Source: an uncultured virus (IMG/VR IMGVR_UViG_3300003364_000021)
Lineage: Duplodnaviria > Heunggongvirae > Uroviricota > Caudoviricetes
DNA length: 20,000 bases
Direction: 5' to 3' (one strand)
IMG/VR virus record: IMGVR_UViG_3300003364_000021
Location: 60,839-80,838 of that record
In this document: positions 7,431-11,971 of the stretch, piece after piece
Numbering within the stretch: the stretch's first letter is position 1
Layout of the letters: the number at the start of each line of letters is the position of its first letter
Translations under genes and position numbers: made by a program
Notes under the pieces: model-generated
What the model saw: only the letters and a program-made list of their open reading frames with translations
Told to the model about the DNA's origin: nothing
Database searches by the model: none

Positions 7431-8516
7431 ATGACAAAACCGCTTCACATCTTCCGCGCTGGCCGCCACACCGCCCAATCCGGGCAGAGCTTCGAATTTT
7501 CCGAGGCTGAGGTTGAGGGCATCGCCGCTGCCTATGATCCCGCCCTCCACGAGGCCCCCATTGTCGTGGGCCATCCCCGCACCGATGCCCCGGCCTATGG
7601 CTGGGTGAAATCCCTGCGCGCCGAAGGGGCCGAGCTTTTCGCCGAGCCTGACCAGGTCGAGCCTGCCTTCGCCGAGATGGTGCGCGCCGGACGCTTCAAG
7701 CGGATCAGCGCCTCTTTCTATCCCCCCAAGGCCGCCGCTAACCCGACCCCCGGCATCTATTACCTCAAGCATGTGGGCTTTCTGGGTGCTCAGCCCCCCG
7801 CCGTGAAAGGCCTCAAGGCGGCCGAGTTCTCTGAGGACGCCGAGGCCGTGACCCTTGAGATCGCCTTCTCGGAAGAAGACGCGCCTGTCGCCAGTTTCGG
7901 CGATGCCCTGAAAGGCGCGATCTCCGCCGTCCTGTCCTGGGCACGCACGCCCGCAGGCCAGGAGGCACTCCGCGACGCCGCAGGCGCGCCCGAGACCGAG
8001 CCCGCCCCATTCGCCGAAACCCAAGAAGGAGACCCCGATATGTCCGGCACGGACAAGCCAACCCCCGAAGACCGCCAAGCCGCGCTCGATGCGCGCGAGG
8101 CCGAGATTGCCGCCAAGGAGGCGGCCTTCGCCGAAGGTACGCGCGCCGCACGCCGCGCCGAAGACGCGGCCCTCCTCGACGCCCTTGCCAAGGACGGGCG
8201 CATCGCCCCCGGCCTCAAGGATGAGATGGCCGCGTTCATGGAAAACCTCGACGCGACGGACGAGGTGTCTTTTGCCGAAGGCAAGACCGCCAGCCAGCGC
8301 GACTGGTTCCGCGACCTGCTCTCAAAACGGGCCAAGCCGCTGATCGATTTCAGCGAGCGGGCGGGTGGTGACGCCCTGCCACAGGTCAAGGGAGCGGACG
8401 ACATCACCGCAGCGGCCAAGCGGCTGATCAAGGACGCCGAGGCCGAAGGCCGAACGCTGAGCTTTGCGGAGGCGGCCCGGCAGATCGAAGAAACCATGGA
8501 GAGCGACGATGCCTAA
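7431..8516 (+). CDS. Prohead protease/scaffold (Mu gpI-like)
   Basis: IFRAGRH, YDP.LHEAPIVVGHP....PAYGWV, GRFKRISASFY, YLKHVGFLGAQPPAVKGL, followed by an acidic Ala-rich scaffold half. Confidence 0.9.
   Translation: MTKPLHIFRAGRHTAQSGQSFEFSEAEVEGIAAAYDPALHEAPIVVGHPRTDAPAYGWVKSLRAEGAELFAEPDQVEPAFAEMVRAGRFKRISASFYPPKAAANPTPGIYYLKHVGFLGAQPPAVKGLKAAEFSEDAEAVTLEIAFSEEDAPVASFGDALKGAISAVLSWARTPAGQEALRDAAGAPETEPAPFAETQEGDPDMSGTDKPTPEDRQAALDAREAEIAAKEAAFAEGTRAARRAEDAALLDALAKDGRIAPGLKDEMAAFMENLDATDEVSFAEGKTASQRDWFRDLLSKRAKPLIDFSERAGGDALPQVKGADDITAAAKRLIKDAEAEGRTLSFAEAARQIEETMESDDA
8040..8516 (+). CDS. Nested in-frame scaffolding protein (Mu gpZ-like)
   Basis: AAGGAG at 8026-8031 precedes an in-frame ATG at 8040 (MSGTDKPTPE...). 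Mu I/Z uses the same internal-start arrangement. Confidence 0.65.
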   Translation: MSGTDKPTPEDRQAALDAREAEIAAKEAAFAEGTRAARRAEDAALLDALAKDGRIAPGLKDEMAAFMENLDATDEVSFAEGKTASQRDWFRDLLSKRAKPLIDFSERAGGDALPQVKGADDITAAAKRLIKDAEAEGRTLSFAEAARQIEETMESDDA

Positions 8517-8874
8517 TCCCGGTATGTTCATCAAATCCTACACCGCCGAGGCGGCGGTGCCCGGCCGCCGGATCGTCAAATTCGGCGCGGGCGGCGGCAT
8601 CCTTGTGGCCGCCTCCGCGACCAATCTCGCGATTGGCATCTCGGACCAACTGGATGCGGCCATTGGCCAGACAGCGGACGTGATCATGTCCGGCTCCGGA
8701 GAGCTCAAGCTCGCGGGCACAGTCGCCGCAGGTGCGCCCGTCGCCTCGAACGCCTCGGGCCTCGGTGTGGCCGCAGTGGCCGGAGCCGGAAACATCGCCA
8801 TCGGCTACGCGCTGCAGGCGGGCGTCGCTGGCGACATCATCGACGTGGCCATCGCCCGTCACTCTGTCACCTGA
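8509..8874 (+). CDS. Capsid cement/decoration protein (DUF2190-like)
   Basis: Small Ala/Gly-rich protein (AIGIS, V..SG, V.AGAPVAS.ASG, IGYAL.AG.AGDIIDV) between scaffold and capsid. GGAG precedes ATG 8509. Confidence 0.75.
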   Translation: MPNPGMFIKSYTAEAAVPGRRIVKFGAGGGILVAASATNLAIGISDQLDAAIGQTADVIMSGSGELKLAGTVAAGAPVASNASGLGVAAVAGAGNIAIGYALQAGVAGDIIDVAIARHSVT

Positions 8875-8893: not shown

Positions 8894-9853
8894 ATGAGCA
8901 CCCCCACCCCCTTTGTCGTCGATCCGGTCCTGACCGCCATCGCCGTCAATTTCCGCAACCCCGACATCTCGTTCATTGCCGACGAGGTCATGCCGCGCGT
9001 GCCGGTCATGGCTACGGATTTCAAATGGACCTATTTCCCGCCTGAGCAGATGTTCACGGTGCCCGACACGGAAGTCGGCCGCAAAGGTCTGGTCCAACAG
9101 GTTGAGTTCACCGGCGAAGAGCGCACCTCTTCGGTCAAGGACTACGGTCTCGACGACGTGGTGCCGCAGCGCGACATCGATGCCGCCCGCGCCCTGCGCG
9201 CCGCTGGCAATTCGGCTTTCGATCCCGAGGCGCGCGCCGTCGAGGGTCTGGCCCATCTGATCCAGCTCGACCGCGAAAAGCGCGTGGCCGCCATGGTGCA
9301 GGACGCGGCCAACTATGACGCGGACAAAAAAGTGGTGCTCTCGGGCGCGGGCCAGTTCAGCGATCCCACGTCCGATCCCATCGGCGTGATCTCTGCCGCC
9401 CTTGATGCCACCTTCATCATGCGCCCCAACGTGGCCGCGATGGGGCGTAAGGCCTGGACGGCGCTCTCGACCCATCCCGATATCCTGAAGGCCATCAACC
9501 GGACCTCGGGCGACAAGGGCCGCGCCGGCCGCGAGGCGGTGGCGGAGCTTTTCGAACTCTCTCAGATCCTCGTGGGCGACAGCTATATCAACTCGGCCCG
9601 CAAGGGTCAGACGGCTGCCTTCGAGAAGGTCTGGGGCGGCAATATCGCCCTGATCCATCGCAACACTCAGGCCGGTCCGGACGGCACCGCCCCCGCATGG
9701 GGCTGGACGGCGCAGTTCGACGGGCGCGTCTCGGGGCGCTTCTTTGACCCCAAGGTCGGCCTCAAAGGTTCCACCACGCTCCGCGTAGGCGAGCAGGTCC
9801 GCGAAGTCATCGCGGCTCCGGCCACCGGCTATCTGATCGAGGATGCGGCATGA
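8894..9853 (+). CDS. Major capsid protein
   Basis: 319 aa with DPVLTAIA..F.N...IADEVMPRVPV, L.REKRVA, SDPI..I and RPN...MG...W..L..HP. AGGAG SD and expected position. Confidence 0.88.
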   Translation: MSTPTPFVVDPVLTAIAVNFRNPDISFIADEVMPRVPVMATDFKWTYFPPEQMFTVPDTEVGRKGLVQQVEFTGEERTSSVKDYGLDDVVPQRDIDAARALRAAGNSAFDPEARAVEGLAHLIQLDREKRVAAMVQDAANYDADKKVVLSGAGQFSDPTSDPIGVISAALDATFIMRPNVAAMGRKAWTALSTHPDILKAINRTSGDKGRAGREAVAELFELSQILVGDSYINSARKGQTAAFEKVWGGNIALIHRNTQAGPDGTAPAWGWTAQFDGRVSGRFFDPKVGLKGSTTLRVGEQVREVIAAPATGYLIEDAA

Positions 9854-10206
9854 GCTATCTCATCAAACGCACCGTGATCGCAGCCAAGCGGCTGGAGGCG
9901 GGAACGACCGTCCCCGCGCAAAAAATCGGCGGGGAGGCGCAGATTGCGCGCCTTCTCGCCCTGGGCGCAATCGAAGAGGCCGGGGACGCGGCAGACACCG
10001 CGCCGCCGCTTGTCCTCGACGACGCGCTGCGCGTGGCCTTGACCAATGCCATCAACGCCCTGCCCGGCGACGCCTTCGACAAGAGCGGCAAGCCCAAGGT
10101 CAAGGCACTGCAGGACGCGCTTCCCGGTTTGGCCGACCAGATCACCGCCGCCGCGCGGGATTCGGTCTGGGCCGGGATGCAGGCCGCCGCCAACGCGGCA
10201 TCCTGA
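9850..10206 (+). CDS. Mu gp35/HI1506-like post-capsid protein
   Basis: LLALGAIEE N-terminal module and F.KSGKPKVKAL...ITAA.RD..W C-terminal module; immediately after the capsid gene. Confidence 0.6.
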   Translation: MSYLIKRTVIAAKRLEAGTTVPAQKIGGEAQIARLLALGAIEEAGDAADTAPPLVLDDALRVALTNAINALPGDAFDKSGKPKVKALQDALPGLADQITAAARDSVWAGMQAAANAAS

Positions 10207-10360
10207 AATTCCAGAGCGAAAGGATCAATCGCGAACCTCACGGGCACATAGGGCGACAACCAGACCCCTCCGGAGGCGATCCGAGTAGGCGCGGCCCACG
10301 CGAGTTGGAGCCTGCAACGTCTGAGGAATGGACGTGACAGCCGGGAGAGACCGGCACCAA
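10207..10360 (+). ncRNA. Candidate structured RNA / leader element upstream of the acb2-like gene
   Basis: Multiple pairings: CAGAC(10261-65)/GTCTG(10319-23), CCT-CCGG-AGG, TCCGA/TTGGA, GTAGG/CCTGC, CGCG/CGCG, and GCCGG-GAGAGA-CCGGC(10340-55). Confidence 0.45.
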
Positions 10361-10382
10361 ACACCCAACCCGGAGGCGCGCC

Positions 10383-10610
10383 ATGGCCGAGACGATCAAG
10401 AGCACCGACGACACCCGGGTCGAAAACAGCCCCGTGCGGCACAGCTACCGCAAACTGGGCGACATCGAGAAGGCCCGGGTCGAGGCGATCAAGGATATCG
10501 GCCAAAGGTTTCTCGACGAGATCGCCGCCGATCAGGGCCGCGAGTTTTCCCTCGCGCGCACCAAGATCGAAGAGGCCGTCATGTGGGCCGTCAAAGGGGT
10601 GGCCCGCTGA
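10383..10610 (+). CDS. acb2: Acb2/Vs.4-like (Acb2/Tad1 hairpin) cyclic-oligonucleotide sponge, anti-CBASS candidate
   Basis: YRKL...E......IKD.G..F and RE.SLARTKIEEAVMWAVKGV resemble Acb2 (YR.L..EEI.....KE.G..F) and T4 Vs.4 (AKTKLKEASMWA..AV) as recalled. GGAGG SD. Confidence 0.75.
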   Translation: MAETIKSTDDTRVENSPVRHSYRKLGDIEKARVEAIKDIGQRFLDEIAADQGREFSLARTKIEEAVMWAVKGVAR

Positions 10611-11035
10611 TGGCCTACCTGACTGTGCAAGACATGATCGACCGCTACGGCGAAGGCTTCCTCGCCGAAGTGACGGCGCGTGACACAATCCCCGGCGTGA
10701 TCGGTATGACCGCGCTGCAGGTGGCCGTGGACGACGCCGTGTCTGTCGCCGAGAGCTATGTCGCAGGGCTTTACAATGCAGACAATCCGCCCCGTGTCCT
10801 GACGATGCATACTGCGGCAATTGCCTGGTACCGGCTGCTCGGTGCGCGGGCCGCCGCCTTTGACGGGGCCGAAGAGGGCTATGAGGCCGCGATCAGCTTT
10901 CTGCGCGAAGTGCGCAAGGGCGAGGCCTCGCTCGGAGACGAGACGCCCGAGGACACAGGCCGGGGCAATCCCCAGCTACCCCAGATCAGCGCGCCGGAGG
11001 GCACCTTCACCCGCGACAGCCTGAAGGGGTTCTGA
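10610..11035 (+). CDS. Head-tail adaptor (Mu gp36 / DUF1320)
   Basis: MAYLTVQDMIDRYGE, A..DA....ESY..G.Y, IAWYRL, YEAAISFL..V.KG.ASLG, and a terminal F.RDSLKGF. Confidence 0.88.
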   Translation: MAYLTVQDMIDRYGEGFLAEVTARDTIPGVIGMTALQVAVDDAVSVAESYVAGLYNADNPPRVLTMHTAAIAWYRLLGARAAAFDGAEEGYEAAISFLREVRKGEASLGDETPEDTGRGNPQLPQISAPEGTFTRDSLKGF

Positions 11036-11036
11036 G

Positions 11037-11540
11037 ATGGTCACCCTCACAGTCAGCCTCGACAGTCTCGACTTTGACAGCGCCATTGCCAATGGCCTGC
11101 GCCAGTTGTCCGACCTCACCCCTTTGATGCGCCGCATCGGCACCGTTCTGGAAACCTCCGTCTCGGAGCGGTTCGAGAAGGGCGAAGGCCCGGGCGGCAT
11201 CGCGTGGCCCGTCTCGCACCGCGCGCGCGAGTTCGGCGGCAAGACGCTGGTCGACAGTACACGCCTGCGGGACAGCATCGTGACAGAGGCTGACAGCCAG
11301 TCCGCGCGCATCGGCACCAACGTGCCCTACGCCGCCACCCATCAGTTTGGCGCGTTCATCGAGCCGAAGGCCGCGGGCGGTGACGCCACGGCCAAACTCG
11401 CCTTCACCCTGCCCAATGGCCAATTCATCATGGTCGACCAGGTCGAAATTCCAGCCCGGCCCTTTCTGGGCTTTGACGACAAGGACGAGACCGACATCGT
11501 GGACACGGTCGAGACCTATCTCCGCGAGGTATTCGCATGA
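11037..11540 (+). CDS. Phage virion morphogenesis protein (Mu gpG / P2 gpS family)
   Basis: DLTPLM..IG, RF.....P.G..W, L.D..RLR.SI, IGTNVPYAA.HQFG, IPARPFLG. Confidence 0.9.
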   Translation: MVTLTVSLDSLDFDSAIANGLRQLSDLTPLMRRIGTVLETSVSERFEKGEGPGGIAWPVSHRAREFGGKTLVDSTRLRDSIVTEADSQSARIGTNVPYAATHQFGAFIEPKAAGGDATAKLAFTLPNGQFIMVDQVEIPARPFLGFDDKDETDIVDTVETYLREVFA

Positions 11541-11971
11541 ACATCTCCGATGTCATGGCCCGCCTCGCGGCTGAGGTGCCCGAACTTGGCGGTCGTATCG
11601 ACGGCGGGCGCGCCTTTGTCGATCTGATCCGCTCGAAGAAACTGCCGGCGCAATCGGTCGCGGCCTATGTCTTTCCCTCCGGCATTCAGGGGGGCCGCCC
11701 GGATGCTGCGTCGGGTGTGTTCAGCCAGATGCTGACCCACCGCACGAGCGTGGTGATCTTCGCCCAAAGTTTTGATCGCACCGGGGCCGCCTCCCTCGAC
11801 AAGATCGACCAGTTCCTGATGCGCGTGGTGCGCGCCTTGGCGGGATGGGCACCGGGCGACGAGGTCGGTGTCTTCCGGTTCGAGCGCGGCCAACTCATGT
11901 CCAGCGGTGCCGGTGTGCTCGCCTACCAGCTTGATTTCTCCATCGATGACCAACTGAGGATCCTCTCATGA
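11537..11971 (+). CDS. Tail terminator / gp37-like tail completion protein
   Basis: RL...VP.L, A.YV.P, V.RAL.GW.P, F..G.L.....G.L.YQLDF; positioned before the tail tube. Confidence 0.75.
   Translation: MNISDVMARLAAEVPELGGRIDGGRAFVDLIRSKKLPAQSVAAYVFPSGIQGGRPDAASGVFSQMLTHRTSVVIFAQSFDRTGAASLDKIDQFLMRVVRALAGWAPGDEVGVFRFERGQLMSSGAGVLAYQLDFSIDDQLRILS

Follow-up and report, generated by a model that had tools for sequence, protein, structure and literature searches.

In phage lambda, the nut site is made up of boxA and the boxB hairpin and is read by N together with Nus factors; the put RNAs of phage HK022 are comparable. Other hairpins stabilise or process messages, among them 5' hairpins of the ompA type, intercistronic 3' hairpins that follow capsid genes and the PeSL cassettes of T4; to our knowledge, these show no sequence conservation across phyla. 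Theta ribozymes, which are minimal HDV-like RNAs, fold as nested double pseudoknots and cleave next to a tRNA; their description stresses 3'-end processing (PMC10879173). Mu-gpT-DE (RF03012; named in PMC7657543) is an RNA motif located 3' of Mu-like gpT capsid genes. Here we analyse a structured RNA in the Mu-like head and neck module of an uncultured tailed virus. It lies in a 176-nucleotide (nt) gap (10207-10382) between a 118-amino-acid (aa) open reading frame (ORF) and an Acb2-family gene. The 20,000-nt stretch that was analysed, hereafter the window, covers bases 60839-80838 of the 80.8-kb IMG/VR virus record IMGVR_UViG_3300003364_000021. The element, about 146 nt long (10213-10358, + strand; alignments A3 and A4), ends in a 22-nt hairpin that recurs in phages from widely differing hosts. 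Covariation supports the element as a new structured RNA of phage operons, and the comparison lends no support to a sponge-specific switch or a pseudoknot. By analogy, its nearest concept is the lambdoid nut boxB or HK022 put RNA, from which it differs in loop size, lack of a boxA and host range.

The 5' 126 nt of the element were 87-98% identical to the window in five relatives (L338, L339, L341, L343 and L345), whose flanking capsid, ORF118, acb2 and gp36 segments were 62-91% identical; they are the best-conserved stretch of the locus in these relatives. A covariance model (R2) scored L005 at 175 bits and L065 at 92, and found L006 at 40 bits. Two anchored pattern scans added further lineages with the same architecture and quite different sequence (L351, L352/L400, L406/L425, L409, L416, L417, L424 and L427). 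Chance matches, mostly inside coding DNA, were dropped (20 of 31 distinct sequences from the first anchored scan and 4 of 21 from the second). Alignment A4 comprises 18 distinct elements and A3 is smaller. The long RNA is common to at least eight lineages, mainly of alphaproteobacterial phages. Since the 5' 126 nt are conserved above the flanking genes and their architecture is kept in distant lineages, the sequence comparison indicates that this part of the element is also functional.

The architecture is as follows. At the 5' edge, the block GCGAAA (10216-10221), which lies outside the search patterns, is present in all 18 aligned elements. It is followed by the long-range helix P1, in which GGAUC (10222-26) pairs with GAUCC (10278-82) and encloses a variable inner domain (10227-10277). 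P1 occurs as GGAUC/GAUCC, GCAUC/GAUGC, GCAAC/GUUGC, GGCUC/GAGCU and CCGUG/AGCGG; four of these five variants are fully paired, and none of the 20 non-cognate combinations can pair. Within the inner domain, the A-U pair 10250/10269 becomes C-G in three close relatives within the window lineage. The joiner GAGUAGGCGC (10283-10292) leads from P1 to hairpin H2; its GAGUAGG part was fixed by the search patterns, as were CCUGC, UGACA and part of the terminal loop, so that the invariance of these segments is by construction, and the GCG(M) that follows GAGUAGG is conserved in A4. H2 consists of GGCCCA (10293-98), the loop CGCGAGU and UGG(A)GCC (10306-12), with A10309 bulged and 10306-08 and 10310-12 paired. 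Nine of its ten stem variants are fully paired, compared with 7 of 80 non-cognate combinations. A UGCA joiner and hairpin Y complete the 5' domain (10313-10335), ACGUCUG (10317-23) pairing with UGGACGU (10329-35), and the last base of Y is the U of UGACA. AACGUCUGA, which is absent from the pattern of the second anchored scan, is kept in 16 of the 18 sequences; Y pairs as ACGUC/GACGU and ACGUC/GGCGU, with other stems, read by eye, in L351 and L400. The stem of the terminal hairpin, Z (10340-44/10351-55), has five variants in A4, four of them fully paired, with pairing in 0 of 14 non-cognate combinations. In A3, compensatory changes affect 10 of 37 consensus pairs, a number reached by none of 500 shuffles. 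These comparative data give good support to the 146-nt element as a new structured RNA. In four close Roseovarius relatives (L001, L002, L004 and L043), acb2 and the hairpin are kept and a 33-42-nt spacer, holding a small hairpin flush against UGACA, replaces the 126-nt 5' domain, which argues that the long 5' domain is optional.

A preliminary description of the gap, made from the letters of the window, had proposed a structured non-coding phage RNA, and the collected homologues bear this out through helices P1, H2, Y and Z; the RNA is also conserved and strand-specific. All complementary segments that it listed are present at their coordinates: CAGAC (10261-65) with GTCTG (10319-23), CCT-CCGG-AGG (10267-76), TCCGA (10280-84) with TTGGA (10305-09), CGCG (10290-93) with CGCG (10299-302), GTAGG (10285-89) with CCTGC (10311-15), and GTGACA-GCCGG-GAGAGA-CCGGC (10334-55). 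The gap is also non-coding, as it held, the next ATG lying at 10383 behind a GGAGG Shine-Dalgarno sequence (10373-77). The helices built from these segments fared differently: the terminal hairpin covaries, all others lack covariation support and three are contradicted by relatives. In the CAGAC/GTCTG helix, C10261 is replaced by G in L361 and L397 without a matching change, and for the CGCG/CGCG helix L417 has GGAG opposite CCCG. In the CCUCCGGAGG palindrome, T10269 is replaced by G, with the compensating change at position 10250, the substitution that breaks the palindrome being the same one that turns A10250-U10269 into C-G. The proposed pseudoknot finds no support in the comparison; its GTAGG and CCTGC segments are invariant among relatives. 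A helix GUAGGC/GCCUGC with an inner GCG/CGC, suggested by RNAalifold, was likewise dropped, as the added lineages show the covarying H2 instead.

The terminal hairpin (10335-10356, + strand) has a far wider distribution. In the window it reads UGACA, stem GCCGG/CCGGC, loop GAGAGA (10345-50) and A10356, and it is unique there (chance expectation 0). Its consensus is UGACA, a 5-bp stem closed by a G-C pair, a GARAGA loop and A; the loop has 6 nt (GAAAGA or GAGAGA) and rarely 7-8 nt. The exact pattern TGACAGCCGGGARAGACCGGCA was found in more than 119 viral contigs, and both viral-contig scans together gave more than 220 contigs with the hairpin. The second of these scans fixed UGACA and GGAAAGAC only, leaving out the commonest C-G pair at one stem position, and returned at least 106 matches in at least 103 loci. 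Among the 106 matches listed, whose stems are unbiased by the pattern, 60 had five of five stem pairs and 20 had four, with about 35 different stems, when full pairing is expected by chance in roughly 2%. In a 63-sequence alignment, chosen for pairing, compensatory changes occur in four of the five pairs and the covariation score is 0.97 compared with 0.19 in shuffles. The sequences on either side are unrelated: in 96 non-redundant contexts, information content falls to about 0 at both motif edges and reaches at most 0.43 bit outside the 22 nt. T is depleted before UGACA. Because 74 near-perfect stems contain 18 G-U wobbles compared with 8 A-C mismatches, and because neighbouring tRNAs all lie on the same strand, the fold is assigned to the given strand. 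The statement in the preliminary description that this hairpin recurs in other phage intergenic regions was thus correct.

Neither the hairpin nor the long element has a counterpart in the catalogues searched. Rfam 15 gave no match in the whole window at gathering score and nothing relevant at E<=10 in 10000-10600; across the window and 38 loci in all, it returned tRNAs, a weak RprA-like match and chance matches only. Motif strings of 14-22 nt were absent from all 8.4 million texts searched, as was a GAAAGA-loop hairpin in connection with bacteriophage tRNA; supplements and subscription papers lay outside these searches. The terminal hairpin is an uncatalogued phage RNA signal. For the long element, Mu-gpT-DE occupies the same niche, as the L448 copy follows a gpT gene and a 118-aa ORF and the window copy a capsid gene and a 118-aa ORF. 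The Mu-gpT-DE model, however, matches neither the window nor five homologues, whether at gathering score or at E<=10, and the long element described here also follows tail-tube and regulator genes.

Cultured phages that carry the hairpin infect Ralstonia, Cronobacter, Pseudomonas, Stenotrophomonas, E. coli (mEp390), Klebsiella, Acinetobacter, Phaeobacter, Planktothrix, Microcystis and Synechococcus. By BLAST it was detected in 47 INPHARED records, including Mu-like, T1-like, N4-like and cyanobacterial phages. It is unannotated in all 11 cultured-phage records inspected, where it lies in 300-770-nt gaps without an annotated gene. There is one copy in 11 of 16 phage records and two in the remaining 5 (35-233 kb). 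In 401 Pseudomonadota genomes a loose pattern had 40 matches, compared with about 31 for the reversed control, and 6 of the 30 loci examined had fully paired stems; the hairpin is thus rare in chromosomes. Eight genomic copies were inspected for neighbouring rRNA genes, and none had one close by. Of the tRNAs within 150 nt, 24 are on the same strand and none on the opposite one, and in 20 of 149 non-redundant contexts a same-strand tRNA begins 2-10 nt 3' of the hairpin. In L064 the hairpin stands at the head of an array of at least eight tRNAs. Two copies that differ in their stems end, in L096 and L105, exactly at the start of an RprA-like small RNA (sRNA) seed; this sRNA scores 37.9 bits with Rfam RprA, below the gathering score of 70. 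At other loci the hairpin lies 15-45 nt 5' of a Shine-Dalgarno sequence and ATG, sometimes in tandem copies.

These contexts suggest a role at transcript boundaries. We tentatively favour, at a probability of roughly 0.4, a transcript punctuation, processing or stability module that is recognised by a factor. The window copy would be a cis-acting structured RNA of about 146 nt transcribed within the late head operon, with a 5' domain composed of GCGAAA, P1 around the variable inner domain, the joiner GAGUAGGCG, H2 and Y. Its terminal hairpin would be the free-standing module that appears in hundreds of unrelated phages, usually once per genome. UGACA and the loop may be bound by a conserved, probably host-encoded, RNA-binding factor; an unchanging loop and 5' pentamer, set on a stem that is free to vary, argue for sequence-specific recognition, and the broad host range of the hairpin-bearing phages suggests a conserved host factor. 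The module would mark and protect the boundary between an abundant upstream message (capsid or tail-tube) and the downstream unit, which is acb2-gp36 here and a tRNA, sRNA or ORF elsewhere. RNase action would be directed or blocked, so that the downstream RNA starts at a defined and protected 5' end. The hairpin is located immediately 5' of RNAs that need defined starts, and its 2-10-nt spacing to tRNAs fits processing better than the antitermination and product-RNA alternatives considered below. Known stabiliser and processing hairpins resemble it in being intercistronic, following highly expressed structural genes and standing at the starts of accessory units; the difference is that the present hairpin combines an invariant loop and 5' pentamer with a variable stem.

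The same tight spacing to tRNA and sRNA 5' ends, together with the conserved unpaired joiners, could also indicate a self-cleaving ribozyme that cuts near the hairpin and frees the downstream RNA. This is very improbable: hammerhead, HDV-like, twister, pistol and hatchet models of Rfam have no match in the window and homologous loci, most hairpin copies stand alone without a conserved flank, and 22 nt is below the size of any known ribozyme. Theta ribozymes are likewise small phage RNAs tightly linked to tRNA genes, but they are double pseudoknots whose cleavage site lies at tRNA 3' ends, whereas the present hairpin is a single stem on the opposite, 5' side (PMC10879173).

The copy number, orientation and shape of the hairpin recall nut and put sites. 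The nascent boxB-like hairpin with UGACA might load onto or modify the elongation complex and so allow polymerase to read through downstream terminators or Rho sites and enter the next unit. One or two copies per genome would correspond to nutL/nutR or putL/putR. An invariant purine-rich loop stands on a varying 5-bp stem with a conserved single-stranded block beside it, co-orientation with downstream genes is strict, and the hairpin heads the tRNA array of L064 and lies just 3' of the repressor operon in the lambdoid phage mEp390. A partner as conserved as RNA polymerase or Nus would also account for the loop being identical among phages that infect Alpha-, Beta- and Gammaproteobacteria or cyanobacteria. 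The details nevertheless diverge. The loop is a GARAGA hexaloop closed by G-C rather than a GNRA-like pentaloop, and the block that adjoins the stem on its 5' side is UGACA rather than boxA. No boxA-like block was seen near the hairpin in the 96 non-redundant contexts, where positions beside the motif carry no information. Spacing of 2-10 nt to the tRNA 5' ends that many copies abut has no antitermination rationale, and the window element is mid-operon with no terminator-like site nearby. We know of no N-type antitermination in Mu-like phages, nor of an N protein in the Mu-like, T1-like, N4-like and cyanobacterial phages that carry the motif. Taken together, this makes a nut-like role rather unlikely.

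Another possibility is that the hairpin or the 146-nt RNA is itself a product, released by RNase P or other cuts to act in trans as a decoy or regulator, possibly in counter-defence. The gene-like single copy per genome, the otherwise empty gaps of cultured phages and the neighbours (tRNAs, the RprA-like sRNA and the anti-CBASS sponge) all agree with this. So does GGAAAGAC, the closing pair and loop, which equals E. coli 23S rRNA 2056-2063, the A2058 Erm/macrolide site (rRNA sequence from PMC12887398), an 8-mer match that could be due to chance. The GAGAGA loop of the window, however, differs from the rRNA. The window copy is not bracketed by a promoter or terminator: searching the gap turned up neither a sigma-70-like promoter nor an intrinsic terminator, and there were 0 promoter-like sites across 9500-11000. 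Hexamers resembling a -10 box are not clearly enriched upstream, occurring at about 1.5-2 times background both just 5' and just 3' of the hairpin, and no evidence for release of an RNA was seen. A product RNA is accordingly unlikely. The hairpin itself was also considered as a sigma-70 promoter (-35/-10 with 16-18-nt spacing) and rejected, as 9500-11000 has no such sites and the start would fall inside the adjacent tRNAs. The likeness to 23S rRNA 2056-2063, to RNase P RNA CR-I and to the sarcin-ricin loop consists of short matches broken by the GAGAGA variant, and we treat these as leads only. The first hairpin of the Rfam Flavi_CRE consensus reads CCGGGAAAGACCGG, which may be a coincidence.

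The position of the element before acb2 had led the preliminary description to suggest an element that travels with the sponge gene or controls it. The neighbouring gene does belong to the Acb2/Tad1 sponge family, its PF24729 hairpin domain scoring above the gathering cutoff. The same record, however, holds a second, paralogous Mu-like head module (L053; G000:C1, about 28.7-31.7 kb) with 85-89% DNA identity to window 8894-11971. In this module an 84-nt gap alone separates the homologue of the 118-aa ORF from gp36; there is no acb2 and no long element, only the hairpin leader. The two head modules probably stem from two related prophages lying next to each other, or from two strains merged in assembly. 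Window 10333-10378 (46 nt, hairpin plus Shine-Dalgarno leader) is 91% identical to this gp36 leader (L053:1501-1547), which argues that hairpin and Shine-Dalgarno segment are the ancestral leader of gp36. Among 35 loci with gp36 relatives in viral contigs, three of which were truncated or distant and left aside, 32 have the hairpin exactly 48 nt before the next ATG. That ATG belongs to acb2 in 17 loci (7 distinct) and to gp36 without acb2 in 15 (6 distinct). Conversely, the hairpin is present in 6 of 51 acb2 loci from prokaryote genomes. Because the hairpin precedes gp36 without acb2 and is carried by few acb2 loci, the element does not travel with the sponge gene. From these alignments, acb2 is a passenger, inserted ORF-precise between a pre-existing leader and gp36.

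These loci also bear on the boldest option of the preliminary description, a ligand-sensing leader through which cyclic nucleotides would tune acb2 translation or transcription. A multi-helix fold with invariant joiners directly 5' of the acb2 Shine-Dalgarno sequence would suit such a leader. The same element nonetheless precedes gp36, an ORF in tail-chaperone position and other genes without acb2, and the Roseovarius relatives keep acb2 with the hairpin and short spacer alone. An expression platform, whether a terminator or a Shine-Dalgarno-sequestering helix, was not seen. GEMM-I/Ib, c-di-GMP-II and other Rfam riboswitch models have no match at E<=10 in the window and homologues, and indeed the search proposed with that description matched no riboswitch or ribozyme family of Rfam 15 even at this threshold. 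A ligand-sensing leader is therefore the least probable of the functions discussed. Alternatively, the element might act at the level of DNA, as a cassette junction or a recombination hot spot that takes up accessory genes, acb2 among them. The cargo immediately 3' is very diverse, conservation has sharp edges, and acb2 presence or absence switches exactly at the leader/ATG junction. Yet covariation of the stem includes G-U wobbles on one strand, the orientation is always that of transcription, and the acb2 junction is 26 nt 3' of the hairpin rather than at it, so that a site acting as DNA is quite improbable.

The genomic settings of the long element, given here from 5' to 3', agree in part with transcript punctuation. 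In the window and L450 it lies between the capsid gene with a 118/119-aa ORF and acb2 followed by gp36. In L448 a PF10124 gpT capsid gene (E 5e-125) and a 118-aa ORF precede it, and 555 nt without an ORF of at least 55 aa separate it from the tail terminator. It is flanked by a 219-aa ORF and gp36 in L454/L440, and by tail-tube FII and a 123-aa ORF in L442. In L456 it lies between an HTH regulator and a 63-aa ORF, and in L447 between a small ORF and GapR-like and VRR-NUC genes. In about half of the lineages examined the element is directly 3' of a highly expressed structural gene; in the remainder it is elsewhere.

Several points weigh against transcript punctuation. Some settings have no abundant structural gene 5' of the element, as with the HTH regulator of L456 and the early-type region of L447. 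One copy per genome is odd for general punctuation, given the many operon boundaries, and is more in keeping with the nut-like and product-RNA readings. In AT-rich versions of the hairpin the 5-bp stem is weak, and it cannot alone block exonucleases. No candidate binding factor was identified, and proteins shared among motif-bearing phages were not searched for. Of 21 runs, the single RNA run contained 6% of the words and exists as contigs, from which transcript ends cannot be read. Folding energy gives no help either. The minimum free energy (MFE) of the gap on the + strand is -61.3 kcal/mol, no better than that of shuffles (z -1.12; 29 of 200 dinucleotide shuffles fold equally well), and z is -0.38 on the - strand. 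The covariation-supported fold of the window copy has -39.8 kcal/mol, compared with an MFE of -48.3 for a different fold, and it is for this reason that energy alone missed the element. The earlier characterisation of the gap as highly structured thus holds by comparison, though mostly for another fold, and not by thermodynamics.

The surrounding genes form a Mu-like head and neck module. A head maturation protease (7431-8516) comes first and is followed by a scaffold-like gene (8464-8874), the major capsid gene (8894-9853; phrog_1005, E 8e-94) and the 118-aa ORF (9850-10206, + strand; phrog_2498, E 2.7e-5), whose stop codon is 6 nt 5' of the structured RNA. On the 3' side, a 26-nt leader (10357-10382, + strand) carries the Shine-Dalgarno sequence and precedes the 75-aa Acb2-family gene (10383-10610, + strand; PF24729, E 7.2e-17, 61.8 bits vs a cutoff of 27). 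The TGA of acb2 overlaps at 10610 with the ATG of the gene for a Mu gp36-type head-tail adaptor (10610-11035, + strand; PF07030, E 1e-19; phrog_195, E 3e-33), and gpG-like and tail-terminator genes lie 3' of gp36. ARAGORN found no tRNA genes in the window. An ORF 5' of the element (window 9850-10206; L448:2643-2999(-); L454:2655-3314(-)), between it and the capsid gene in the window, recurs in several lineages; the families concerned are of unknown function (phrog_2498, phrog_27280, and a weak FluMu_N match).

Other conserved modules were noticed around the hairpin. L096:1669-1800(-), L105:1231-1361, L124, L126 and L155 each have three hairpin copies with different stems, two of them directly 5' of an sRNA similar to the 3' portion of RprA and followed by a terminator. 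A different conserved non-coding RNA of about 250 nt (around position 400), with the hairpin mid-way, occurs in L180, L185, L191, L212 and L255 (alignment A2); it is bracketed by repeats of the form TAGGATGNNTTCAGCAA and has no Rfam match. Another conserved module lies 5' of the hairpin in L101:1406-1524 and L171:299-417(-), with two covarying hairpins and a long-range CCCY/GGGG pairing, and a tRNA starts 3 nt after the hairpin. In Ralstonia phage Eline (L176:2080-2370), the unannotated gap after two hairpin copies contains, by eye, a TnpB-like C-terminal remnant (CxxC ... DRDxNAA) and then an IS-end-like repeat.

A 22-nt signal with an identical loop and 5' pentamer across very different hosts and lifestyles, present about once per genome, implies a shared partner that has not yet been described. 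In its boldest form, which we regard as doubtful, the UGACA/GARAGA hairpin would be a docking site for one universally conserved host machine (RNA polymerase with Nus, an RNase or the ribosome), converged on or exchanged by phages of at least Proteobacteria and cyanobacteria. It would then be a pan-phage cis-regulatory or decoy RNA not yet described, of which the 146-nt element is an elaborated form. The hairpin may also mark accessory or anti-defence expression units, with tRNAs, sRNA mimics or acb2 right behind it. The idea of a sponge-specific riboswitch is corrected, in that acb2 uses a pre-existing leader, and the acb2 case shows how counter-defence genes plug into late operons. More broadly, the hairpin would imply that phage gene expression follows a general rule overlooked by current annotation.

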